A DNA stretch of 64,000 nt from positions 1 to 64,000 of the forward strand of contig JAHQWG010000012.1 in the NCBI GenBank assembly GCA_029856045.1, read 5' to 3'. The notes beneath the pieces are model-generated. The model saw only the letters and a list, made by a program, of their open reading frames with translations, did not search any database and had not been told where the DNA came from. Position numbers and translations under genes: made by a program. Below are positions 20,755 through 35,696 of this stretch, in pieces. Origin of the DNA: Promethearchaeia archaeon (GTDB lineage Archaea; Asgardarchaeota; Lokiarchaeia; Sigyniarchaeales; SOKP01). How positions within the stretch are numbered: the first letter of the stretch is position 1; each line of letters starts with the position of its first letter.

Positions 20755-21279
20755 TTGACAAATTATAAAGCAAAAGTAATAATGGCTGGTTCTTATCGGG
20801 TTGGAAAAACATCCCTAATTGTAAGATATTGTGATAACACTTTTTTAGAAGAATATATCCAAACTATTGGGGCAAATTTCTACATAAAAGAAATTGATCA
20901 GAAGGTTTTTACAAATTCAAATATTAATTTAACGCTTTTTTTATGGGATATATGCGGACAGATTGATAAATTATTTGTTACTGAGTATTATTTTCAAGGT
21001 GCGGCGGCAGCTATCATTGTTTTTGATTTAACTAATGAACAAAGTTTTAAAGATTTAGATTTTTGGATTAAGAAAATAAGAGATCTCTCGGGAGATATTC
21101 CATTTATAATAGTAGGAAATAAAATAGACCTAGAGAATGAGAGAAAAATTTCTAAAGATATTGGAATAAAAAAGTCAGCTGATTATAATGTAAATTATAT
21201 TGAAACTTCTGCCAAGAAGGATATTAATGTTAACATAATTTTTAATGATATTTCGAAAATGATTATAGCAAGAGTATAG
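20755..21279 (+). CDS. Rab-like small GTPase
   Basis: GSYRVGKT, TIGANF, WDICGQ, YFQGA, GNKID, ETSAK. No C-terminal Cys. Confidence 0.9.
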   Translation: MTNYKAKVIMAGSYRVGKTSLIVRYCDNTFLEEYIQTIGANFYIKEIDQKVFTNSNINLTLFLWDICGQIDKLFVTEYYFQGAAAAIIVFDLTNEQSFKDLDFWIKKIRDLSGDIPFIIVGNKIDLENERKISKDIGIKKSADYNVNYIETSAKKDINVNIIFNDISKMIIARV

Positions 21280-22041: not shown

Positions 22042-23226
22042 TTAAAAAGTAAATGTTATTGCAATTTTAATTTTCTTATCGGTTATATCTTCCACCATTT
22101 TACTGAATTTTTCACGTTCTTCTTTTAATTTTTTAAGATACGAGTGGTAATCATCATTTTTCTTCTTAAAATCGTTTTCTAAATGATCTTTTTTCAAACT
22201 TATTGTAGCAATTTTCTCTTTTAATTGGGTAATATTTTTTGAGAGTCCAATATCATTGATCTGTTTTTCTGAATTTCTAAATTCTTCTTGTAAATTTTTA
22301 TATTTTTCAATATTTTCTTTTAATTCATTTCCTGAAAGAATTTGATTAATTTGTTCTATAGTAGTTTCCTTTTTGGTTGTTTTTAAATTTAATTCATTAG
22401 ATTCTAAAGTTAATCTTAATTGTACTAATAAATCAGACAATTTTCTTAGATCTTTGCTATCTTTACATAAATTGGCAATAGGATCTTTAAGAAAATCTTT
22501 GATATCATCTATGGAAATATTTCTTAATTTAATATTTCCCCTTTCTATCTCAACTCGTAATTTTTTTAATGCCTTTTTGAATTTCAAATTATCATTTATA
22601 TCTATTTTTAGATTAAATAAAGAATTGTTCAAATCTAATTGTTTTTTGAAAAGTACATGATCTTCAAACTTTATTAATTCATTTTTCAATGATTTTAGTT
22701 GTATCGCCACATCTTCCTTTTCATTGCCTATTTCATTTATTGATATTTTAGTATTTTCAATATTGTTTTTTATTGCAAATAATTTTGGCATCTTATTGAT
22801 CAAATTTTCAGCTTCCCTAATTTTTTTATATTTTTCTCTCAAGAATTTATCTAGTATTCCACCTTTTTGGCCTAATTTTCTTGTATAGTAATGTAAATCT
22901 TTTATTTCTACTTGAAAATCCCTTTGGAATTTAGGAATGGTTTTTTTACTAATATCTGTTATTAATTCAAATAATTTTTTTATTTCTTTTAATAAACTAG
23001 AGAGTTTTTCATAGGTCATATCTTCCGGAATTTCAATAACATTAATATCTTTTTTAACTCTCTCTGTAAAATAAGACAGTGATTTATTTGCCTTTTGGTC
23101 TAGATTCTCTTTGGCTTCGGATTTTTCCATTCTATCTATTGATTTTTTTAAGTCAATTAGACTTTCATCAATGCTATCAATTAACTTCTGGGCTTTTCCT
23201 TTAACTTTAGAAAATATCTCTTCCAA
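22042..23226 (-). CDS. Coiled-coil hypothetical protein
   Basis: 394 aa, K/E/L-rich heptads; directly downstream of serS. Confidence 0.7.
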   Translation of the reverse strand: MEEIFSKVKGKAQKLIDSIDESLIDLKKSIDRMEKSEAKENLDQKANKSLSYFTERVKKDINVIEIPEDMTYEKLSSLLKEIKKLFELITDISKKTIPKFQRDFQVEIKDLHYYTRKLGQKGGILDKFLREKYKKIREAENLINKMPKLFAIKNNIENTKISINEIGNEKEDVAIQLKSLKNELIKFEDHVLFKKQLDLNNSLFNLKIDINDNLKFKKALKKLRVEIERGNIKLRNISIDDIKDFLKDPIANLCKDSKDLRKLSDLLVQLRLTLESNELNLKTTKKETTIEQINQILSGNELKENIEKYKNLQEEFRNSEKQINDIGLSKNITQLKEKIATISLKKDHLENDFKKKNDDYHSYLKKLKEEREKFSKMVEDITDKKIKIAITFTF

Positions 23227-23276: not shown

Positions 23277-24596
23277 TTACTTTTCACCCTTAATTGGATT
23301 AATAATTTTTTTATTATTCATATATTTTTGTAAGACTTTTGGGATATTTATAGAATTATCCTCATTTTGATAATTTTCCAATATACAACATATAGTTCTT
23401 TCTGTCGCTATTGCAGTAGAATTTAATGTATGGATTATTTTATATCCTTTAGGATCACCTAGCTTCCCAAATCGAATATTTAATTTTCTTGCTTGATAAT
23501 CCAAACAATTGCTACATGACCCTAGTTCTCTATATGCATTTGAAGCGGGAAACCATCCTTCAAGGTCGTATTTTTTTGCAGCGTTATCATTCATTTCTCC
23601 AGAAGCAATATTTACAATTCTATATGGAATTTCTAGTTGTTTGAAAAGATCTTCAGTATTTTTGTTTAATTCCTCATGATAATTCCAAGAATCTTCGGGT
23701 TTGCAAAGTATAAATTGTTCAATTTTTTCAAATTGATGGACGCGAAAAATTCCTAATGTATCCTTACCATGAGCTCCAGCTTCCCTTCTAAAACATGTAG
23801 AGATTCCGGCATATTTTAAAGGTAATTGATTATTATGAATTACTTCATTTTGATGATATGCAGCAAGCGTTTGTTCAGCTGTAGCAATCATATATAAGTC
23901 TTGATCCTGAATCTTATATAATTGTTCTTCAAAATCAGCAAGTTCTGATGCTGCTTTAATTGAATTATATTTGATGAAAAATGGGGTCCATAATGGGATA
24001 AAACCTTTTGAAATTAAGAAAGCTAAAGCAAATTGCATTAATGCAAGATTCATTACAGCTATATCATTTTTTAGGAAATAAAATCTGGAACCAGAAATTT
24101 TAGATGCCCTTTTAATATCTGCACCATCAATAAGTTCAATTAAATTAACATGCGAAAGCGGATTAAATGAGAAATTTGGTAAATCACCAACAACTCTGAC
24201 CAATTCGTTTGAATCTTCATTCTCCCCTACAGGAACACTTTCATCAATTAAATTTCCAACTTTATAACGATACTCTTCTCGTTTTTCTAATAATTTATTA
24301 ACTTCATTTTCAATACTTAGAATTAAATTTCCAATTTCTTTTGAATTCTGAATAGTTGGTTCGATCTCTTCTGGGGATTTTTGGGCTAGCTTCATTGCAG
24401 ATATATCCTGAGAGAAGATATTTCTTTGACGTCTTAATTCGTTTAATTGTTGTAATTTTTTTCTATAAGTTGTATCATACTCGATAACTTTATCAACTAC
24501 ATTCGTATTTTTAAAGCGTTTTTTCTCGGATTCATATATCAAATCAATGTTTTTACGAAATTTCTCAATATCAAGCATTTTTTGTAATTGACCCAA
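23277..24596 (-). CDS. serS: Serine--tRNA ligase
   Basis: MLDI, ATAEQ, CFRREAGAHGKDTLGIFRVHQFEKIEQF, ELGSCSNC, HTLNST. Confidence 0.95.
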   Translation of the reverse strand: MGQLQKMLDIEKFRKNIDLIYESEKKRFKNTNVVDKVIEYDTTYRKKLQQLNELRRQRNIFSQDISAMKLAQKSPEEIEPTIQNSKEIGNLILSIENEVNKLLEKREEYRYKVGNLIDESVPVGENEDSNELVRVVGDLPNFSFNPLSHVNLIELIDGADIKRASKISGSRFYFLKNDIAVMNLALMQFALAFLISKGFIPLWTPFFIKYNSIKAASELADFEEQLYKIQDQDLYMIATAEQTLAAYHQNEVIHNNQLPLKYAGISTCFRREAGAHGKDTLGIFRVHQFEKIEQFILCKPEDSWNYHEELNKNTEDLFKQLEIPYRIVNIASGEMNDNAAKKYDLEGWFPASNAYRELGSCSNCLDYQARKLNIRFGKLGDPKGYKIIHTLNSTAIATERTICCILENYQNEDNSINIPKVLQKYMNNKKIINPIKGEK

Positions 24597-25103: not shown

Positions 25104-27077
25104 ATGGAACAAGTTAGCATTGGAGTTTATGTTTGTGAGTGAGGGGTAAATATAGGGGGTTACGTAGATTGTGAAGCATTAAGAGACTTTGCAGAAACAC
25201 TACCAAATGTTACAGTGTCTAAAGTAAATAAATTTACATGTTCAGATCCAGGTCAAAAAATAATTAAAAATGATATTCAAGAGTTGGACTTAAAAAGAGT
25301 AGTAGTGGCGTCATGAACACCAAAAATTCACGAACCTACATACAAATCATTGTGTGCTGAGTCCGGATTAAATCCAAATTATTTTCAAATGGTAAATATA
25401 AGAGAACATTGTTCTTTTGTACATCAAGATAACAAAGAAAAAGCGACTCAAAAAGCAAAAAATTTAATTCGAGCAGGAGTAAATAGAGCACGTCTTTTAG
25501 AAACTGTGCCAATCAAAGAATTGAGCGTTGAAAAATCCGCGTTAGTTATAGGAGCTGGTATTGCTGGGATGAATGCTGCGTTAAATTTAGCAAATCATGG
25601 TATTAAGGTATATCTAGTTGAAAAAGAACCAACAATAGGCGGTAGAATGGCACAGTTAGATCGAATATTTCCAACAGATGATTGCGGAATATGAGTACTA
25701 GCACCAATTATGGTTAATGCATCAAAACATCCAAATATTGAATTAATGACATACTGTGAAGTTGTCGAATTTGGTGGATTCGCTGGCAATTATGAAATAA
25801 AAATTCTTAAAAAACCAAGATATGTTGATGAAAACAAATGTACGGGATGCGGTTTATGCACCACTAAATGTCCAATAGATGTGCCAGATGAATTTAATAG
25901 AGGAATTGGGCAGAGACATGCAATTTATATCCCATTTCCACAAGCAGTCCCGATTCTTGCTTTAATTGATAAAGAAGTATGCATTGACTGCAAACTTTGT
26001 GAAAAAGATTGTCCTGCTGAAGCAATTGATTATGAACAACAGCCAGAATATATCGATATTAAAGTGGGGGCTGTTATAATAGCAACTGGTTGGGATGAAT
26101 ATCCAATTATTGATAGTAATGAGTATGGTTATGGCATCTATCCGAATGTAATAACCCAAATAGAATTGGAAAGATTATTAAGTCCAATCGGTCCAACATA
26201 TGGTCATGTCCATAGAATTTCCGATTGTAAAACACCTAAAAATGTTGCTATGTTTCAGTGTGTTGGATCACGGAATTTAAAAGCTAATATATATTGTTCG
26301 GGTGTTTGTTGCATGGTTGCAATGAAAAATGCCCAACTTTTAAAACAAGAATATCCAGATATGGAAATCACAATTTTTTACATTGATATTAGAGCGACCG
26401 ATAAAGGGAATGAAGAGTATTATACCGCAGCGAGAAAAGCAGGAGTTAATTTCATAAAGAGTAATATTTCACGAGTGTATGAAGATCCGAAAACAAAAAA
26501 TTTGAAATTTTTGGTGCAAGATTCTTTAAGAGAATCATTGGGCATTCAAGAGAAGGAATATGATTTAATTGTTTTATCTACTGGAATCAATCCATCAAAA
26601 GGAACAAAAGAAGCCATTGCAGTATTGGGATTAGACAAAGGACCAAATGGATTTTTATCAGAAATTCATGGATGTCTCGCACCTCAAGAGACCAATAAGC
26701 GGGGTATATATATTTGTGGTTGTGCTGCAGGTCCAAAAAATATTCCTTATTCCGTATCTACTGCCTTAGCAGCTGCGAGTAAAGCATCGGCCCTAGTATT
26801 ATCAGGCAGAATAAGACAAGAATTAATGATTCCGGAAGTTGATCAGAATTTATGTATGGGATGCCACCGGTGTGAAAAATCATGTTTCTATCACGCTATT
26901 AAAGTAAATGAAGATGGTGTAGCCGAAGTTGATGAATTAAATTGTAAAGGATGTGGATTGTGTGTAACAGTCTGTCCAGCTAATGCATTAGATCTAAAAT
27001 ATTATAGGAATAATCAATTTAGAAGTGAGATATATGGAATCTGTGGAAATAATTATTCTATGGAGGATACAGTTTAA
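25104..27077 (+). CDS. hdrA: Heterodisulfide reductase subunit A, selenoprotein with 3 UGA (Sec13, Sec71, Sec197); 657 aa
   Basis: ATG at 25104 after GGGGAG. In-frame TGA at 25140 (VYVCE-U-GVNI), 25314 (VVVAS-U-TPKIHE) and 25692 (DDCGI-U-VLAP). Track ORFs 25350 and 25710 are in the same frame. GAGIAG and QCVGSR..YCSGVCC motifs; ferredoxin motifs. Confidence 0.92.
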
Positions 27078-27115
27078 ATCTAAGTAAATAATAAAAAATG
27101 AGGGGTTTAAAAAAA

Positions 27116-27541
27116 ATGGAAAGTAAAATAATAAATCAAAATCCTAAAATTATAATGTTTGCTTGCGAAAAATGAGGCTATGCAGCTGCAGATTTAACCG
27201 GAACTTGTAGAAAACAATATTCATCTGATATCTATATAATAAGAGTGAAATGTACAGGACGTGTAAGTTTGGATATAATCATAGAATCACTTCTCAATGG
27301 GGCAGATGGAGTTGCAATAGTAGGTTGACATGAGCATGAGTGTGAGTTCGGAGATGGTAATATGAATACATATAAGCATATTAAATTTTTAAAAAAACTT
27401 TTCAAACATATCGGAATATCTGAAAATAGAGTTGAATATTATTTTGTATCTGCTGCAGAGGTGGAAAATTTTCTTAATGCTACTACTGATATAATAGATA
27501 AAATAACAAAATTGCCTCCTTTACCAAAAAAATCTGAATAG
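27116..27541 (+). CDS. mvhD: MvhD/VhuD [2Fe-2S] subunit, selenoprotein with 2 UGA (Sec20, Sec71); 141 aa
   Basis: FACEK-U-GYAAADLTG (TGA 27173), IRVKCTGRV, GADGVAIVG-U-HEHECEFGDGN (TGA 27326), VSAAE; TAG stop. Absent from the ORF track. Confidence 0.92.
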
Positions 27542-27581
27542 AATGACCTTCATAAAAAAATTTTAGTTATGAAGTGACTCT
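27540..27581 (+). promoter_or_regulatory. SECIS element, eukaryote/Loki-type
   Basis: ATGAC-[CTTCATAA]-AAAAATTTTAG-[TTATGAAG]-TGAC: AUGA/GA kink-turn core, perfect 8-bp upper stem, A-rich apical loop, weak lower pairing AGA/TCT. Confidence 0.85.
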
Positions 27582-27634
27582 CCTTGCAAGGGATCTCGGA
27601 TTATTTTATATATAAATATTTAATTTGAAGAAAA

Positions 27635-29089
27635 ATGAAAGTGCAAGAGAATATTAATAGGAATGTTTTAAATGATGCATTAAATGTTATGAAATCATAT
27701 AGATTTAGAAATCTAATTGATTCTAAGGAAGACATTTTAAATTCAAGAATATATTCAGAAGAGGAATATTACGATTTCATTTTTACATTGTACGATGAAG
27801 ACAAATTAAAATATTCTCTCTTTAATTTTTTAAAAAATAAAGAAATTGCTTTTATTAAAGATTTAAAAGAATTTGGTAAAGAATTTAATCATGATTTAAA
27901 AAAGATCTTGAGCTTATGTTATCTTTTAAAATATGAAAATTTAATTGAAATTAAAAAAAATGAAAATACTTCAGAATTAGAAATTAATATTAAAAATAAG
28001 GATTTTATTAAAGTTAAACCAATATATGAACCTGTCAAGGTTATATTTGATTCAAAAATATGTTCTGGTTGTGGAATTTGTCAAGGAATTTGTCCTGTTA
28101 ATTGTATAAAAATTGATAACGGCGTTGGTATTATTGATGATAAGAAATGTATTAGTTGCGGGTTATGTTATACAGTTTGTCCAAGGTCATACTTACCAAT
28201 AGACATTTTAAACATATATATCTCTAATTCAAATAAATTTAAAAATCAATCAGATATTGGAGAATATTTGGAAGCATATTCTGCAAAAACAAAAGTTGAT
28301 GAGATATCCAAAATTTGCCAAGATGGTGGAATTGTAAGTTCTATTTTATATTATTTATTTGATACCCAACAAATTGATGGTGCAATTGGGGCTGGTATGA
28401 GTGAAACAATTTGGAAGCCAACACCACTTTTAATTAAAAATAAAGATGATATTAAAAAAACCTCAGGTACAAAATATGCAAATAATCCTAATTTGCAATT
28501 ATTAAATCAGCATATAGATTGTGAAAACTTGGCTGTAGTTGGAACTCCATGCATGATGCAAGCATTACTAAAATCTCATATCTATAATTTTAAAACTCCT
28601 AACCTAGATAAGATAAAATATAGAATTGGAATTTTTTGTATGGAAAGCTTTCCATATGAAAGTATTTTAGAAATTGCAAAAAGATTATCTATAAAAATTA
28701 ATGATATAAAGAAAATGGACATAAACAAAGGAAAATTCTTTTTATATTCAAGAACTGGAGAGACTAAAAATATCCCAATTAAAGAAATAACTTCATTGGC
28801 TAGAGAAGATTGCGAATATTGTTATGATTTAACATCAGAGTCTGCTGATATTTCTATAGGCTCAATTGGGTCTCCAGCAGGGTGGTCGACTGTTTTAGTC
28901 AGAACAAAAGTTGGAAAGGAAATTTTTAAGGGATTAGTCGATAAAAATTATATCGAATGGAAAGATCTTCAAGATGTTCAGCCAGGTTTAAACTTATTAT
29001 TAAAAATTGCTAAGACGAAAAGAAAGAATTGTACTGAACACATTAATAAGGTAAAAATGGAGAAAGAGTATATTCCTCAATATTATTAA
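27635..29089 (+). CDS. F420 hydrogenase/dehydrogenase beta subunit (FrhB/FdhB family) with 2x[4Fe-4S] domain and about 130-aa N-terminal extension
   Basis: CSGCGICQGICP, CISCGLCYTVCP, QDGGIVS, GTKY, VGTPC, GIFCMESF, CEYCYD, ADISIGSIGSPAGW. Confidence 0.9.
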   Translation: MKVQENINRNVLNDALNVMKSYRFRNLIDSKEDILNSRIYSEEEYYDFIFTLYDEDKLKYSLFNFLKNKEIAFIKDLKEFGKEFNHDLKKILSLCYLLKYENLIEIKKNENTSELEINIKNKDFIKVKPIYEPVKVIFDSKICSGCGICQGICPVNCIKIDNGVGIIDDKKCISCGLCYTVCPRSYLPIDILNIYISNSNKFKNQSDIGEYLEAYSAKTKVDEISKICQDGGIVSSILYYLFDTQQIDGAIGAGMSETIWKPTPLLIKNKDDIKKTSGTKYANNPNLQLLNQHIDCENLAVVGTPCMMQALLKSHIYNFKTPNLDKIKYRIGIFCMESFPYESILEIAKRLSIKINDIKKMDINKGKFFLYSRTGETKNIPIKEITSLAREDCEYCYDLTSESADISIGSIGSPAGWSTVLVRTKVGKEIFKGLVDKNYIEWKDLQDVQPGLNLLLKIAKTKRKNCTEHINKVKMEKEYIPQYY

Positions 29090-29157
29090 ACAAAATTATG
29101 ATAAGAATTATTAGAAATATTGAATTATCTTATAACTATTACAAGAATCTCTAATTA

Positions 29158-31953
29158 TTACTGAAGTAATATCTCTTTATCACGATATATCATTCCAAGG
29201 AAAGAGACTAAATCCATTACTTTTAGTTTTAAATCTCTATTTTCTTGTAGATAGCAATTAAAATGAGTTAAACATTTTGGACACGTTACTATCAAAAATT
29301 CGGCACCTGTATCAATAGCTTCATTAATTCTTTGACCTTGCAGTAGTTTTGAATAATTACTGCAAGAGATAAAGGCAGAAACTCCACAACAATTTGCATC
29401 TTGCCTGTTATTTATCATTTCTATTAATTCAATATTTGGTAAATTATTTAATATATCACGGGGGGCATCATAAACATTACTCAATCTGCCAAGTCTGCAG
29501 GGATCGTGGTAAGTTATTTTAATTTTATCCTGATTAGATAATTTCAAATCATCTAATAATCTTTCTTTTTGTATGTATTCGCTAATGTGATATACTTCAA
29601 AATCATATTCATTATCATCTTTAAAAAAGTCTTTATATACATACTTCCACATATAGTAACCTTCAGCACAGCTGCATATTATGGTTTTTACTCCTGCATC
29701 TTTATATAATTTTACGTTATATTTTGCTAGCTTTTCGAAAGTATCAAGATCTCCAGTCCAATAACAATCATGTCCACAACATCTCTCATCAGCTAAAACC
29801 ACTGGAGTGATATTATTTAGGTTTAGAATACCAATAGTCGTTTTGGGAATATTAAGATAATCAATATTGTTATGGTAGAGTGGAAATTGACATGTTCCAT
29901 AGTAATGTTTTGGTTTTTGGGAATTATTAGATGAATCATCATTTTTTTTATAGGGGATATCACAGTTAGAACAACTATTACAATTTAAGCATCGATTTGC
30001 TTCTTGAATTGCAATTTCTTCGGTAAATTCTAGTTCAATTTCATTAAAAGTGCTACATCTTTCTTCTATAGGGATAATAGGCAGATCATTTCTCTCTTCG
30101 AATATAACTTCCTTCTTTGGGATTGGTGATGTTTTAAATTGCTCTCTTTTAAATCTGTTTTCTCCTATATCAATCCCTCTTAGATATCGATCAATAGAAA
30201 TTGCTGCTTCATATCCATTAGCTATTGCTCTAATTGCTATTCCTTGACCCTCTGTAACATCTCCTCCAGCAAAAACACCAAGGATATTTGTTTCTAAAGT
30301 AGAGTCATCGAATTGAATTTTTCCTCTTTTATTAATTATCAACTCATTTTGAGCTGCCTTTAGGAGAGAATAATCAGCTTCTTGACCTATTGCTAATATT
30401 AACACATCAAGTTGTATTTTAAATTCAGAGCCTTCGATTTGAATAGGTTTTCTCCTTCCTGAGGAATCTGGTTCGCCAAGTTTCATTCGGATACATTCTA
30501 CTTTGGAAACATTTCCTTTTTTATCTCCAATTATTCTTACGGGATTAGTTAAGAATTGAAAATCTATATTTTCTTCTTTTGCCATTTCAATTTCCTCTTC
30601 TGCTGCAGGCATTTCTTTTTCCGAACGTCTATAAATAACAATTACTTTTTTTGCACCTAACCTTACGGCCGTTCTTGCTGAGTCCATAGCAACATTTCCA
30701 CCACCCGTTACTCCAATAATTTTATCTTTAATTATGATAGGAGATTTTTTAGATTCTTGATCTGTAGGTCTGAGATATTTGAGAAATTCTATTCCTCCTA
30801 TAACATTATTCAATTCTTCACCTTCGAGTCTCATACTTCGGCTACTCTGGAGTCCTATTGATATAAAAATCGCTTTATAACCCATATTTGTTAACTTCTT
30901 GAATGTCAAATCTGGTCCTATTGGAGTATTTGTTTTTATCTCAACGCCACTTTTTTCTATGAATTCAATTTCATAATCCAAAATATCATCAGGTAATCTA
31001 TATTCTGGGATTCCAACTCTCAACATACCTCCTTTAAAGGGGCTGGCTTCAAATATTGTTGGTTTGTATCCTTTCTTTGCGAGGAAATATGCTGCTGTTA
31101 AGCCAGCGGGTCCCGAACCAATAATAGCAACTTGTTCGTTTGTTTGTTCAAATGGTTGTAATTGACTTAAGGGTTGGTTTTTTATTTCCCAATCAGCAAC
31201 AAATCTTTTTAATGCCCTGATGGCAATTGGCTTATCTATAGTATTGCGATTACAACTTAATTCACATGGATGTGTACAAATTCGTCCACATACACCTGGA
31301 AGGGGATTTCTTTCCCGTATTAAATTGAGAGATTCTTGAAATTTTCCTTCTTTAATTAATGTAATATAACCTTGAACATCAATATTTGCAGGACAAGCTT
31401 GTGTGCACGGTGATATTCCATTCATAAATGGCAAGCAACCTATAAAATATGCTATTTCTCCTTTTCTAGCAATCTTTAAATCTGTATTGTCTAAAAAGCC
31501 AATTTTATTTACTAATTCTATTTGATCATTAGCCATTAAATACGGTAAATTTGAATATAATCGACCATGAGTTGTACATTGAAGCTTTTCCTCTTGAAAT
31601 GAGTCATTTTCTGTAGCAATATTTCGAAGTTTCAAAATAATATCGAGAAAATTAACACCAACGTTATCTTTAGACATTGGACAGTATTCTGAACAAAGTC
31701 CACAAGTTAAACAACTCCAAATATTTGAATTATTAATTGCCACTTCAACTGAGTAAGTAGAAAAATCTCTAACTAATTGCCTTGGATAAAACAATCCAAA
31801 TGGAGAGAGGGGGCATATATTAATACAACGATTACAATCATAACAATAGTAAGAGGATTTTAACAACTCAGACATTTTTTCAATACCTTTATGTTCAATA
31901 TTTAAACTCGTTCCTATTGAAGTTTTACTTTTAGTTTTCATTTTAAAAATCAT
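29158..31953 (-). CDS. HdrD-like protein (HdrC-like Fe-S + 2 CCG domains) with inserted GltD/NfnB-like FAD/NAD(P) module
   Basis: CYDCNRCINICP, CLTCGLCSEYCP, YFIGC | PCTQACP, CGRICTHPCE, GSGPAG, GGGNVAMD, YRR, EANRCLNC | ERCCG, CAEG, YHDPCRLGR, CCG, TCPKC. Confidence 0.85.
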   Translation of the reverse strand: MIFKMKTKSKTSIGTSLNIEHKGIEKMSELLKSSYYCYDCNRCINICPLSPFGLFYPRQLVRDFSTYSVEVAINNSNIWSCLTCGLCSEYCPMSKDNVGVNFLDIILKLRNIATENDSFQEEKLQCTTHGRLYSNLPYLMANDQIELVNKIGFLDNTDLKIARKGEIAYFIGCLPFMNGISPCTQACPANIDVQGYITLIKEGKFQESLNLIRERNPLPGVCGRICTHPCELSCNRNTIDKPIAIRALKRFVADWEIKNQPLSQLQPFEQTNEQVAIIGSGPAGLTAAYFLAKKGYKPTIFEASPFKGGMLRVGIPEYRLPDDILDYEIEFIEKSGVEIKTNTPIGPDLTFKKLTNMGYKAIFISIGLQSSRSMRLEGEELNNVIGGIEFLKYLRPTDQESKKSPIIIKDKIIGVTGGGNVAMDSARTAVRLGAKKVIVIYRRSEKEMPAAEEEIEMAKEENIDFQFLTNPVRIIGDKKGNVSKVECIRMKLGEPDSSGRRKPIQIEGSEFKIQLDVLILAIGQEADYSLLKAAQNELIINKRGKIQFDDSTLETNILGVFAGGDVTEGQGIAIRAIANGYEAAISIDRYLRGIDIGENRFKREQFKTSPIPKKEVIFEERNDLPIIPIEERCSTFNEIELEFTEEIAIQEANRCLNCNSCSNCDIPYKKNDDSSNNSQKPKHYYGTCQFPLYHNNIDYLNIPKTTIGILNLNNITPVVLADERCCGHDCYWTGDLDTFEKLAKYNVKLYKDAGVKTIICSCAEGYYMWKYVYKDFFKDDNEYDFEVYHISEYIQKERLLDDLKLSNQDKIKITYHDPCRLGRLSNVYDAPRDILNNLPNIELIEMINNRQDANCCGVSAFISCSNYSKLLQGQRINEAIDTGAEFLIVTCPKCLTHFNCYLQENRDLKLKVMDLVSFLGMIYRDKEILLQ

Positions 31954-32213: not shown

Positions 32214-32705
32214 ATGGCACAAGAAACTATAATAAAGCAAAATACTTTCAAAGAGATTATTAGAATACTACGTACTAATATAGATGGTACATTGCTGGTC
32301 CAACATGGGTTAGCGAGAATTAAAGGTGTTGGACAAAGACTTTCTCAAGCAATCTTAAGAATTGCAAATATTGATCCAACAATAAGAATAGGATTGATTT
32401 CTGAAAAAGATATTAAAAGAATCGAAGAAATAATTGAGGATCCCATAAAAAATGGGATTCCAAATTGGATGGTTAATAGACAGAAAGATTTAAGAACTGG
32501 TGAGTACCTACATATAACCGGTCCTCGTTTAGAATTAACTGTTAAAAGAGATATTGAAAGAATGCGAAGACTTAGATCTTGGAAAGGCTATAGGCATGGG
32601 TTCGGTCTGAAGGTTAGAGGACAAAAAACTCGCTCAACTGGTCGTAAAGGATTAGTTGTGGGTGTAATCAGGAAGAAGATTCTAAGACAAATGGAAAAGA
32701 AATAA
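32214..32705 (+). CDS. rps13: 30S ribosomal protein uS13
   Basis: IKGVG, PNWMVNRQKD, RHGFGLKVRGQKTRSTGR. Confidence 0.95.
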   Translation: MAQETIIKQNTFKEIIRILRTNIDGTLLVQHGLARIKGVGQRLSQAILRIANIDPTIRIGLISEKDIKRIEEIIEDPIKNGIPNWMVNRQKDLRTGEYLHITGPRLELTVKRDIERMRRLRSWKGYRHGFGLKVRGQKTRSTGRKGLVVGVIRKKILRQMEKK

Positions 32706-32725
32706 TAATACTAAAGTGAAGATGA

Positions 32726-33238
32726 ATGGGAGATCCAAGAAGATTAAAGAAGAAATATAAAAAACCAAGTCACCCCTTCCAGAAACAGAGAATTGAAGAA
32801 GAATTAAGATATTTGGGAGAATATGGACTCCGAAATAAAAGAGAATTTTGGAAACATCGAACACAATTAGGGAATTATAGAAGAACTGCCAGAAAAATAA
32901 GAACTTTACCACCAGAAAGACAAAAAAAAGAATTAAGGGTTTTAATGGATAAACTGATTCGTTTAGGGATTATCGAGAAAAATGCTGAATTTGAAGATGT
33001 ATTATTTGTAACTGTTGATGATATTTTAAACAGAAGACTTCAAACTTTAGTATTTAAAAAGGGTTTTGCTAATTCTATTTATCAAAGTAGGCAGTTTATT
33101 ATACATCGGCATATTGAAGTCAATGGCAAAAGAATTGATTCACCTTCATATCTTGTTAAAAAAGATGAAGAAGATACACTCAAATTTGTAAGTTCTAGTC
33201 CATTTTATGGAAGAGAAGAACAACCTGTAAGTGATTAG
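32726..33238 (+). CDS. rps4: 30S ribosomal protein uS4
   Basis: MGDPR, YGLRNKRE, RRLQT, PSYLV. Confidence 0.95.
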   Translation: MGDPRRLKKKYKKPSHPFQKQRIEEELRYLGEYGLRNKREFWKHRTQLGNYRRTARKIRTLPPERQKKELRVLMDKLIRLGIIEKNAEFEDVLFVTVDDILNRRLQTLVFKKGFANSIYQSRQFIIHRHIEVNGKRIDSPSYLVKKDEEDTLKFVSSSPFYGREEQPVSD

Positions 33239-33432
33239 TAAAAATTTTATAATACTTCTAATTTTAAACATTGTACCTATATTTAAATAAATTTAAACTA
33301 CCAAAAAAAAAATAGATTGATTATTAATCTAATTAATCAAAATAACAAAAAATTTAATATTACCATGTTCTTCAAATAATTAATTGTTTTAATTTAGAAC
33401 AATGTTAGTATATTTAATACTTGGTTTTAAGA

Positions 33433-33699
33433 ATGGTAAACGGAACTGTAAAATGGTTTAATAGTCGAAAAGGCTATGGTTTTATTACTTTTGAAGATGA
33501 TGGCGAGGAAAAAGATGTATTTGTACATTATTCCGCGATTTCAGCCGAAGATGATAGATTTAAAACATTAAATGAAGGAGATAAAGTAGAGTTCACTATT
33601 GAAGAGGGACAAAAGGGTCCACAAGCCAGTGATGTAGTTATAACTGAAAAAGCACCTGTGCAACATAGATCGAGAGGAGGATATTCTCGTTCTTTTTAA
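33433..33699 (+). CDS. Cold-shock protein with short RGG-type tail
   Basis: [27 protein letters not shown]; tail [10 protein letters not shown]. Confidence 0.95.
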
Positions 33700-33909
33700 A
33701 TAAGAAAGTAATAAAAAGAAAATTAAAAAAAAAATATTAAGTAGAAATTGGGAATTTAATTATTTCTCTAATCTTCTTCTTATTTTTTTATTTTTTCTAT
33801 GTAAAAATGCAAATTATTTTAAATTAAATTAGGATATTAAAAATTATTTAATTTTCAAAAAATTTTCCCTAAATTAATGTAATAAGAAGAAAAAACGATA
33901 TTTTAATTT

Positions 33910-35169
33910 CTATTCCTTTGTAAATAATTCTGCCAAATGAATTACGACTTCAGCAGCTTTTTGTAAAGATAAAGTCGGAATATATTCTTTTTTAGAATGA
34001 AATAATAGGCCCCCAGTAAAGATATTGGGAGTTGGAATACCCATAGCACTTAAATGAGAGCCATCAGTCCCACCTCTAATTAGATGAATATTTACTTCTA
34101 TTCCTGCTAACTCTATTGCCTTCTCAGCTAAATCTATTATTTTATGTTCTTTTTTTAAATAATCATACATATTCTCGTATTGATGTTGAAAGTCTAATCC
34201 AATTTTCAAGCTTGGATAACGAATTTGATATGCATTTTTCAAACTTGTGATATAATCCATCCGCCTTTTGTTGTTCTTTAATTCAAAATCTCTTATAATC
34301 AAAGTTGCGGTTGCTTCTTCTTCTCTTCCTTGTAGATTTGATAAATGATAAAATCCTTCCCTCTCCTCAGTATGTTCGGGGGATTCTGATTCAGGTATTT
34401 CGCTTAAGAATCGGCAAGCTATATGAATTGCGTTAAACATTAAATTTTTAGCATATCCTGGATGAACACTCAATCCTTTAAATTTTATTAAAGCTTTCCA
34501 TGCATCAAAGCATTCACTTTCTAATTCTCCCATCTCAGAACCATCTAATGTATAGCAGATTTTCGGTAATTTTTCAATATTTACTTTTTTTGTTCCTCTT
34601 CCAATTTCCTCATCTGGAAAAAAACAAACTACAATAGGTCCATGTTTTAATTCAGGAAATTTTTTCCAAGCAGCGCATGCTGTCATGATTTCAGCAATAC
34701 CAGCTTTATCATCAGCACCTAATAATGTATCTCCTTGGGATGTAATTATATCAAGTCCAATGTATTTTTCTAATTGCAGAGAATCATTGATGTTTAATTC
34801 CAAATCATTGTCTTGAGAAAATTTTATTGCTGTTCCATTGTAATTTTTATGAATTACAGGTTTTACATCTTTACCACTTACAGCAGGAGAAGTATCTAAA
34901 TGGGCAATAAAACCAACTTTTTTTACATTTTCAAATCCTTGGCTTGGAGGTAAGTTTGCATAAATATATCCAAACTCATCTTGAATAATATTTTCGTAAT
35001 TAAGACTTTTCAATTCTTCTACTAATAATTTACCAAATTCTATTTGCCCTTGAGTAGATGGTATATTTTCTGTATTCTCATCTGATGTAGTCCAATTTTT
35101 TACGTATCTTAGAAATCGCTCCACCGCATTATCTAATAAAAAATTTTGGATTTCTTTAGAAAGAATCAT
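33910..35169 (-). CDS. pepT: Peptidase T (M20B tripeptidase)
   Basis: AHLDT, LLGADDKAG, PDEEIG, HPGYAK, IRGGTDG, FHS. Confidence 0.92.
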   Translation of the reverse strand: MILSKEIQNFLLDNAVERFLRYVKNWTTSDENTENIPSTQGQIEFGKLLVEELKSLNYENIIQDEFGYIYANLPPSQGFENVKKVGFIAHLDTSPAVSGKDVKPVIHKNYNGTAIKFSQDNDLELNINDSLQLEKYIGLDIITSQGDTLLGADDKAGIAEIMTACAAWKKFPELKHGPIVVCFFPDEEIGRGTKKVNIEKLPKICYTLDGSEMGELESECFDAWKALIKFKGLSVHPGYAKNLMFNAIHIACRFLSEIPESESPEHTEEREGFYHLSNLQGREEEATATLIIRDFELKNNKRRMDYITSLKNAYQIRYPSLKIGLDFQHQYENMYDYLKKEHKIIDLAEKAIELAGIEVNIHLIRGGTDGSHLSAMGIPTPNIFTGGLLFHSKKEYIPTLSLQKAAEVVIHLAELFTKE

Positions 35170-35294
35170 AATAACAATAACCCACTTTAATTTTTAAATT
35201 GGTATTTAATATAATAAATTTGAAAAATATGATATTTCCTCATTTAACGAATAAAATTAGAACTTAATTTTTAATTAAAGCGTAGAGAGAATGG

Positions 35295-35696
35295 CTATAC
35301 ACGCCTACCTCTATGCCCTCCTTTTCTTCTACTTCCATCATGGGACTTTGGTGTGACTTCTTCTATTCTGCCTATTCTTAAACCAGACCGTGCCAATGCA
35401 CGAATAGCAGCTTGAGCCCCGGGTCCAGGTGTTTGAGCTTTATGTCCTCCAGGACCACGAACTTTAATATGAACTCCATAAATACCTTTATCCTTTAACC
35501 CTTGGGAAACTCTAAAACCCGATTGCATAGCACTGTAAGGAGAACTCTCCTCCCTTGAAGTTCTAACTACCATCCCTCCTGAACATTTTGCAAATGTCTC
35601 AGCACCTGATAAATCGGTAACTGTAATAATAGTATTGTTATAGGAACTTAATATGTGAGCGATAGCCCATTTTTCTTCTTTCGACTTTTTACTCAT
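35295..35696 (-). CDS. rps11: 30S ribosomal protein uS11
   Basis: [38 protein letters not shown]. Confidence 0.95.

Follow-up and report, generated by a model that had tools for sequence, protein, structure and literature searches.

Heterodisulfide reductase (Hdr) modules that resemble the locus analyzed here have been described from several archaeal lineages. HdrA proteins with multiple selenocysteine (Sec) residues are known from Lokiarchaeota, where HdrA has five possible Sec positions, VhuD is always encoded downstream, and one Sec insertion sequence of the Lokiarchaeial type (lokiSECIS) after the VhuD gene serves both genes (Mariotti et al. 2016, PMC4989117). A 2024 survey of Asgard selenoproteomes confirmed multi-Sec HdrA-VhuD pairs with a shared SECIS across Asgard archaea (PMC11227280). 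In the Elp-Hdr complex of Methanothermobacter marburgensis (ElpABC-HdrABC), a FdhB/FrhB homolog and an MvhD homolog feed electrons from reduced coenzyme F420 (F420H2) to HdrA, as shown biochemically and structurally (PMC12350162). Clusters of hdrA, mvhD and frhB have been reported from Korarchaeia (PMC10667645), and related FrhB/FdhB-Hdr clusters from anaerobic methanotrophic archaea (ANME) and Methanoperedens (PMC9012536, PMC12054007); F420-linked bifurcation or confurcation, or ferredoxin:F420 oxidoreduction, has been proposed for them, and none has been characterized biochemically. Here we analyze a stretch of 64,000 nucleotides (hereafter the window) from a Lokiarchaeial genome, which contains an operon of hdrA, mvhD and an frhB-like gene facing a convergent gene for an HdrC-NfnB/GltD-CCG fusion protein. 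Among cultivable organisms, Lokiarchaeia stand closest to the eukaryotic host lineage, and how they gain energy is debated, with hydrogen-dependent, homoacetogenic and syntrophic modes under discussion. An earlier note on this sequence had proposed that the four genes form one electron-bifurcating module. We find instead that hdrA-mvhD-SECIS-frhB is a self-contained, vertically conserved Lokiarchaeial operon and that the fusion gene is its neighbor in a single genus.

Comparison with described systems

Of the characterized systems, Elp-Hdr is the nearest to this operon. As in Elp-Hdr and the Fdh-Hdr arm of Methanospirillum hungatei (PMC12350162; PDB 8RVU, 7BKC), the gene for an F420 module is clustered here with an mvhD-type gene. 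The Lokiarchaeial operon differs in that it contains no ElpA/FdhA-like scaffold gene, includes hdrA but not hdrBC, and encodes an HdrA and an MvhD that both have several Sec residues; its F420 module is FrhB/Fsr-like, with an N-terminal ferredoxin domain and a unique extension of ~125 aa, and its host is not a methanogen. The Korarchaeial and ANME clusters show the same co-location in the absence of a hydrogenase, but they belong to other lineages, whereas the proteins here contain Sec, and the ANME clusters usually include a non-catalytic FdhA homolog and a type II HdrA. The selenoprotein side of the operon is already known (PMC4989117, PMC11227280): the Lokiarchaeial HdrA-VhuD tandem pairs have the same gene order, up to five Sec positions in HdrA including one near position 200, two Sec residues in VhuD, and a single SECIS with an AUGA...GA core after the second gene. 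The window differs from them in that its SECIS is intercistronic, preceding a conserved third gene, and frhB is not discussed in either of those studies. Multi-Sec HdrA/MvhD proteins (PMC4989117), F420-dependent donor arms of Hdr (PMC12350162) and hdrA-mvhD-frhB clusters (PMC10667645) are thus all known kinds, and the operon described here is a scaffold-less, multi-Sec Lokiarchaeial variant. We found no literature on a Lokiarchaeotal FrhB with heterodisulfide reductase or F420, and nothing specific on HdrD, aldehyde:ferredoxin oxidoreductase (AOR) or NfnB in Asgard archaea, an absence that is no proof of novelty.

Gene content of the operon

Proteins were translated with TGA read as Sec, and domains were assigned with Pfam and NCBIfam profiles (Table 1). 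These searches and the open reading frames bore out the genes and domains that the earlier note had read from the sequence. The hdrA frame ends in TAA (27075-27077) rather than TGA, and the HdrA2/HdrA models of NCBIfam cover residues 6-646 of the protein. Its score of 833 bits over these residues against NF040770 is below the cut-off of 1100 solely because that model contains a fused MvhD. Matches to Pyr_redox_2/NAD_binding_8 at residues 146-187 and to Fer4 at 239-308 and 579-629 give the layout of a type I HdrA, in which a thioredoxin reductase-like flavin adenine dinucleotide (FAD) domain is combined with inserted and C-terminal 2x[4Fe-4S] ferredoxin domains. MvhD matches PF02662 with 134.4 bits (gathering cut-off, 22.3) and contains two Sec sites, CxxU and GU.

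Table 1. Positions in the window of the operon, its Sec decoding signals, the convergent gene and the conserved flanks
Feature	Position	Strand	Description
hdrA	25104..27077	+	type I HdrA selenoprotein, 657 aa; TGA read as Sec; HdrA models
hdrA Sec codons	TGA at 25140-25142, 25314-25316, 25692-25694	+	codons 13, 71, 197
mvhD	27098..27541	+	VhuD/FlpD-type [2Fe-2S] connector; PF02662
mvhD Sec codons	TGA at 27173-27175, 27326-27328	+	codons 26, 77
Loki-type SECIS	27542..27600	+	mvhD-frhB spacer; AUGA core 27543-27546; stem-loop span 27543-27577
frhB-like gene	27635..29089	+	predicted F420-reductase module, 484 aa; Pfam, NCBIfam, fold
HdrC-NfnB/GltD-CCG fusion gene	29158..31953	-	931 aa; convergent to frhB across a 68-nt spacer (29090-29157)
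seryl-tRNA synthetase gene	23277..24596	-	conserved divergent upstream flank of the operon; Pfam
ribosomal protein genes S13 and S4	32214..33238	+	conserved downstream flank; Pfam, synteny

The third protein consists of a helical, winged-helix-like extension of ~125 aa, a 2x[4Fe-4S] ferredoxin domain and an FAD/[4Fe-4S] FrhB core. Its start was placed at 27635, equivalent to the point right after the SECIS at which the orthologs (~497 aa) begin; a longer frame from 27569 includes upstream in-frame TGAs that lie in the SECIS-bearing intergenic spacer. The protein matches PF04422 (67.9 bits), PF04432 (148.4 bits) and NF006807 (285.8 bits; cut-off, 269), and its sequence matches in the PDB include FrhB (3zfs_C, 7e-62), 8riu_B (1.6e-56) and ElpB (9e-21). 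In a predicted structure (mean confidence, pLDDT 76) compared by Foldseek, the core resembles FrhB 6qii_B with a template-modeling (TM) score of 0.88, and the core plus ferredoxin domain resembles 8riu_B with a TM score of 0.82. The combination of a ferredoxin domain with an F420 reductase is that of the plug-in F420-reductase subunits of the Ethanoperedens carbon monoxide dehydrogenase and Fwd complexes (8RIU/8RJA; PMC11493965). By these profiles and the modeled fold, the protein belongs to the FrhB/FdhB/FpoF group of F420-reactive flavoproteins, and its reactivity with F420 is a prediction.

The genome encodes CofC, two copies of CofE, CofH and the F420-dependent enzyme Mtd, and its gene complement indicates that the organism can probably both make and use F420. 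The window itself includes cofC, mch and an mtxX-like gene, as the earlier note had listed, and mcrA, which that note had not seen in the window, was not found anywhere in the genome. The window likewise contains no NiFe hydrogenase gene, no molybdopterin (FdhA-type) gene and, apart from the fusion, no CCG protein, in agreement with the earlier reading that hydrogenase, FdhA, HdrB and HdrC are missing from it.

The first ~125 residues of the FrhB-like protein (27635-28010) make up a conserved, helical extension whose end resembles a winged helix; it is common to the window-type trio and to a second type of trio in this genome (below). This extension has no family match, and a fold search with it returned only weak winged-helix matches (MarR, Z-alpha; E about 0.1). 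It might be a docking element that replaces the FdhA/ElpA scaffold.

Assembly chimerism was considered as a source of the gene arrangement and ruled out by independent contigs spanning the junction between frhB and the fusion gene, which come from two independent studies (a salt marsh in 2019 and marine sediment in 2016). No RNA data set is listed as carrying the locus. From a run labeled metatranscriptomic but flagged as probably DNA (X20), short contigs matched hdrA and the fusion gene exactly, with none on frhB; it was not used as evidence either way.

Selenocysteine decoding

The three in-frame TGAs of hdrA and the two of mvhD are Sec codons, because they align with Cys or TGA in orthologs and paralogs, a covarying SECIS follows mvhD, and the genome encodes both tRNA-Sec and SepSecS. 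Positions 13 and 197 of HdrA are TGA in 18 of the 18 orthologs compared. At position 71, this HdrA and three paralogs have TGA, whereas those 18 orthologs have Cys. All three sites, which include the canonical position near 200, pair with TGA or Cys across the 18 orthologs and four paralogs, and a Cys-only HdrA paralog (contig C3) has Cys at each of them. For MvhD, U26 and U77 correspond to TGA in nearly all orthologs, with Cys at the second site in two.

The element in the mvhD-frhB spacer has the features of a Loki-type (eukaryote-like) SECIS: an AUGA...GA core, a stem of ~8-9 bp, an A-rich loop of ~11 nt and a position just 3' of a selenoprotein gene. It consists of an 8-bp stem (27548-27555 / 27567-27574), an 11-nt A-rich loop, the 3' GA and a small second hairpin. 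The element is kept in 18 orthologous loci, the alignment of which shows compensatory changes at 9 of the 11 predicted pairs. This single SECIS would serve all five UGA codons.

The trio is conserved across genera and the fusion is not

Homologs of the fusion and FrhB proteins were sought in 151 genomes of the order to which this genome belongs, and the surrounding DNA was compared. Outside the source genus, the hdrA-mvhD-frhB block was found in 19 of 20 orthologous loci, which represent eight other genera (g2, g4, g5, g6, g8, g10, g12 and g15, the last from another family); the remaining locus has a scaffold gap inside mvhD. Identities to the orthologs are 67-70% for HdrA (59-68% for the split gene of g15), 45-64% for MvhD and 46-57% for FrhB. 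The flanks are also conserved, with cofC, a 394-aa protein and seryl-tRNA synthetase upstream and S13, S4 and S11 downstream. Seryl-tRNA synthetase is encoded upstream of hdrA in 17 of the 20 loci; in one genome, G034 (L070), it lies further upstream, past an inserted HdrCB-HdrA2-MvhD2 block.

The fusion gene is beside the trio in none of these loci. A convergent fusion adjoins hdrA only in genomes of the source genus, which are 95% identical. Genera g5, g8, g9, g10 and g12 have the trio and no full-length fusion, whereas genus g3 has the fusion and neither a window-type HdrA nor FrhB. The synteny check therefore failed for the proposed four-gene module, which should not be propagated as a conserved system.

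In several genomes of other genera about 130 nt separate frhB from rpS13, and in others this spacer holds unrelated insertions of 1-9 kb, suggesting that the landing spot of the fusion is generally unstable. Insertions of 5-9 kb are seen at L068:2304-12047, L073:6812-12036 and L079:7424-14664, one of which includes a partial second copy of frhB.

Candidate partners at other Hdr loci

The genome encodes about eleven HdrA paralogs, four of them with 3-4 Sec codons, and about twenty CCG proteins. The canonical genes that the earlier note had named as a check on its proposal are present elsewhere, in an mvhG-mvhA-hdrC-hdrB operon that lacks hdrA and mvhD (C35:55914-60224; L099:6912-11224). All 12 genomes sampled, which represent seven genera, have this operon, never with hdrA or mvhD within 9 kb. 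A stand-alone pair of Sec-hdrA and mvhD lies among housekeeping genes at C46:82986-85338. In this family the genes of the canonical MvhADG-HdrABC set therefore lie in two distant operons, and a canonical HdrBC is available in trans.

A paralogous trio is part of a seven-gene cluster encoding Sec-HdrA, MvhD, FrhB1, FrhB2, HdrCB, HdrA2 and MvhD2 (C44:49192-59107, L026; also L086-L097). It is conserved in genera g1, g2 and g4; its HdrCB has 396 aa, its type II HdrA has 1041 aa, and FrhB1 carries the same N-terminal extension as the window's protein. The cluster resembles those proposed for ANME, in which type I and type II HdrA occur with HdrD and FdhB, and it shows that a trio closely related to that of the window has a CCG protein in cis. 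The window-type trio also has such neighbors on occasion. In an ENA contig from a sister lineage (L098:6538-15394), it is followed on the same strand, after a gap of 58 nt, by genes for HdrCB, type II HdrA and MvhD2. The HdrA and FrhB encoded there are 76% and 71% identical to those of the window, and the HdrCB, HdrA2 and MvhD2 are 76-78% identical to the products of the C44 genes, so one donor trio seems to have replaced another ahead of this acceptor block. In G034, the HdrCB-HdrA2-MvhD2 block is divergent and upstream of a window-type trio. An HdrC/CCG-type gene therefore lies beside the window-type trio in three lineages, including the source genus, and at least 17 other genomes have no such neighbor.

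HdrA paralogs of this genome thus occur in at least four conserved contexts. One is a stand-alone hdrA-mvhD pair, with mvhGA-hdrCB in an operon of its own; the second is the F420-linked trio; in the third, a trio is joined by HdrCB and type II HdrA; and the fourth couples a trio with tungsten AOR and an NfnB-bearing HdrD (below). Separately, contig C3 (49854-63878) contains a mixed cluster encoding a CCG protein, AOR, an HdrB-like protein, a Cys-only HdrA, MvhD and two molybdopterin-family proteins.

The convergent fusion gene is a genus-level duplicate

The fusion protein has an HdrC-like dicluster domain (Fer4_8/17, residues 35-94), a module of Fer4_20 and Pyr_redox_2 (180-590) and two CCG domains (91.5 bits). 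The central module is of the NfnB/GltD type, with PF14691 and PF07992 matches and the motifs GSGPAG and GGGNVA (NAD(P)), and it is closer to NfnB (4ylf_B, 1.7e-102) than to GltD. The whole is an HdrD-like protein in which this module interrupts CCG domain 1 behind its first Cys, not an end-to-end fusion. The cysteines expected of HdrD/HdrCB (C37-C91, C173, CC725/726, C762, C819, CC855/856 and C891/C894) are invariant, as are all cofactor cysteines and both Rossmann motifs, among 40 homologs. In a search of 5.8 billion proteins, the hits with the ~920-aa architecture were all from Asgard metagenome-assembled genomes, under generic names.

A complete NfnB/GltD module for FAD and NAD(P)H with two [4Fe-4S] clusters, as in the NfnB subunit of NfnAB (PDB 4YLF, 5JCA), is likewise spliced into an Hdr-family protein in type III HdrA and in the HdrA-NfnB insertions of ANME-1 (PMC12054007, PMC9012536). 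Here, however, the host protein is HdrD-like (HdrC plus two CCG domains), the insertion is within the first CCG domain, and no NfnA-like partner is adjacent; the window copy has no NfnA-like gene near it, and it lacks the pairing that characterizes the NfnAB transhydrogenase.

Clustering of neighboring open reading frames showed that the commonest neighbors of the fusion family encode a tungsten AOR (28 of 39 loci) and a polyferredoxin of ~185 aa (27 of 39). Both adjoin the fusion in 25 of the 34 loci of other genera and at a second copy in this genome, on contig C32, and neither is next to the copy in the window. The AorABC enzyme of Aromatoleum (PMC6365974) and WorABCSL of Acetomicrobium (PMC12318220) likewise combine tungsten AOR and polyferredoxin genes with that of an FAD/NAD(P)-binding protein, and by this analogy the fusion-family flavoprotein could receive electrons from the polyferredoxin. 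The fusion flavoprotein is, however, unrelated to AorC or WorABC and carries Hdr-type CCG domains, and the window copy has lost these neighbors.

In genus g2 the gene string goes on with a further Sec-HdrA (45-47% identity to that of the window), MvhD and a divergent FrhB-like protein of 379 aa. In genus g4 the same kind of trio is divergent upstream of the fusion, and an NfnA-like gene and an FrhB-NfnB fusion lie downstream. Altogether, another HdrA-MvhD-FrhB-like trio lies within 3-6 kb of an ancestral-type fusion in 17 of the 34 loci of other genera, against ~6% expected by chance according to our arithmetic from about 11 hdrA genes per genome, a comparison in which related genomes are not independent. 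On C32, the ancestral copy has AOR and polyferredoxin genes directly downstream, and 21 kb separate it from the matching trio, which is encoded on the same strand.

In a maximum likelihood tree of 40 fusions (quick search), the window and C32 copies form sister clades within the source genus (SH-aLRT support, 100). The window fusion is therefore a genus-level duplicate that lost its AOR context, and tree and synteny together rule out the alternative that it is a partner retained from a common ancestor. Its ratio of nonsynonymous to synonymous substitution rates (dN/dS) is 0.17 among three species of the source genus, a fourth contig ending just upstream of frhB, and by this estimate the gene is under purifying selection rather than decaying.

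A related arrangement was noted at C36:375585-379020 (also L031, L035-L040 and L061), where an NfnA/SudB-like gene (NF004862, above cut-off) precedes one for an FrhB-NfnB fusion of ~900 aa; this pair suggests an Nfn-like enzyme wired to F420. It is the same pair that in genus g4 lies directly downstream of the HdrC-NfnB-CCG gene.

Function of the trio and alternative readings

Together, these observations favor a reading in which the trio is an F420-linked bifurcating or confurcating HdrA module whose CCG-type partner, its high-potential acceptor, is encoded elsewhere, and the fusion is a recent neighbor confined to one genus; we put the probability of this reading at slightly under 60%. HdrA, with its three Sec residues, would be the flavin-based electron-bifurcating core, and the operon would also supply its mid-potential electron arm. 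FrhB would exchange a hydride with F420/F420H2 at its FAD, and HdrA would send one electron uphill to ferredoxin and the other downhill to a CCG-type disulfide-reductase module outside the operon, candidates for which are the hdrC-hdrB products of the C35 operon and soluble HdrCB-type proteins. The reverse direction, in which F420H2 is made for the tetrahydromethanopterin (H4MPT) Wood-Ljungdahl pathway, is also conceivable. The fusion would be a recent duplicate of a gene ancestrally tied to tungsten AOR and polyferredoxin that landed, in the source genus only, in the rearrangement-prone spot between frhB and rpS13. This reading is supported because the trio is conserved, FrhB scores above the cut-offs of its profile models and has the expected fold, the genome has F420 genes and Mtd without Mcr, and Elp-Hdr provides a precedent. 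It is also supported because the mvhG-mvhA-hdrC-hdrB operon consistently lacks hdrA and mvhD, in other genera the trio has no adjacent fusion, and the window fusion is sister to an AOR-linked copy. If it is correct, an F420-dependent donor arm of Hdr exists outside methanogens and without an FdhA/ElpA scaffold, with a bearing on the balance of F420, ferredoxin and thiol pools.

Several observations weigh on the other side. No gene for an ElpA/FdhA-like scaffold was found in the window and the operon consists of three genes in all orthologous loci, so direct docking of FrhB to MvhD is only an assumption, and FrhB shows far greater similarity to modules of the FrhB/Fsr type than to ElpB and FdhB, the Hdr-associated ones. 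A disulfide acceptor is being posited in an organism without Mcr. All 24 genera have the C35-type HdrB, among them genera that lack the trio, such as g3, and this universality makes its phylogenetic profile uninformative about a partner in trans. Finally, the duplicated fusion has stayed under purifying selection beside the trio in three species, which would fit a partnership of recent origin.

Such a partnership could take the form of a four-protein complex in the source genus, in which the fusion supplies an HdrC/HdrB-like disulfide site and a flavin that would react with NADPH and possibly bifurcate as well, linking F420H2, NADPH, ferredoxin and a disulfide. The modules missing from the operon are precisely those that the fusion provides; all its cluster-binding cysteines are invariant and its sequence is apparently under purifying selection; the ancestral fusion locus has its own trio far more often than the chance estimate, related genomes again not being independent, and window-type trios adjoin HdrCB-HdrA2-MvhD2 in the sister lineage and in G034. 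The adjacency is nevertheless limited to one genus, the convergent orientation means that the fusion and trio are not co-transcribed, each occurs without the other (the trio in at least five genera, the fusion in g3), the primary neighbors of the fusion family are absent here, and varied insertions occupy the frhB-rpS13 spacer of several genomes. We therefore consider this complex unlikely, and regard any working partnership of the trio with the neighboring fusion as a minority possibility. A specific version, that the fusion was recruited after duplication as the dedicated acceptor arm of a five-Sec HdrA-MvhD-FrhB complex, with two flavins that might each bifurcate and with electron exchange among F420H2, NADPH, ferredoxin and a disulfide, seems doubtful to us; such a machine would parallel the ancestral cluster of AOR, polyferredoxin, fusion and HdrA-MvhD-FrhB-like proteins. 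What stands of the earlier interpretation is its general idea of such a trio working with an HdrC/CCG-type protein, to which the paralogous trios found with HdrCB or a fusion lend support; the fusion as a conserved subunit does not stand.

The trio might also be complete in itself, as a soluble ferredoxin:F420 oxidoreductase in which electrons from reduced ferredoxin pass through HdrA, MvhD and FrhB to F420, yielding F420H2 for Mtd and Mer of the H4MPT pathway. This would explain an operon without HdrB or HdrC in 17 or more genomes, and the same hypothesis has been published for the Korarchaeial clusters (PMC10667645). The genome has an F420-dependent Mtd, no gene for an F420-reducing hydrogenase was found beside FrhB, and cofC is part of the conserved upstream block. 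An FrhB with its own ferredoxin domain could, however, suffice for this reaction without a 657-aa bifurcating flavoprotein. Moreover, the C44-type trio always has HdrCB in cis and the window-type trio repeatedly gains HdrCB neighbors, which argue that such trios need a CCG module. We judge the partner-free enzyme quite improbable, and prefer the F420-linked module with a CCG-type partner encoded elsewhere. Distinguishing conserved operons from accidental adjacencies, as done here, guides the choice of complexes to purify and model.

Conserved flanking genes

Between cofC and the seryl-tRNA synthetase gene, nearly all orthologous loci encode the 394-aa protein (22042-23226, minus strand, in the window), which is conserved at 43-47% identity and matches no Pfam or NCBIfam profile. 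A gene for a small GTPase of the Ras/Roc family (20755-21279, plus strand) is part of the conserved block upstream of cofC, and several similar GTPase genes flank the fusion loci of genus g2. Downstream of the operon, the archaeal S13-S4-S11 string, which is contiguous in other genera, is broken in the source genus (32214-35696), where a gene for an M20 peptidase has been inserted (33910-35169, minus strand) and rpS11 is inverted (35295-35696).

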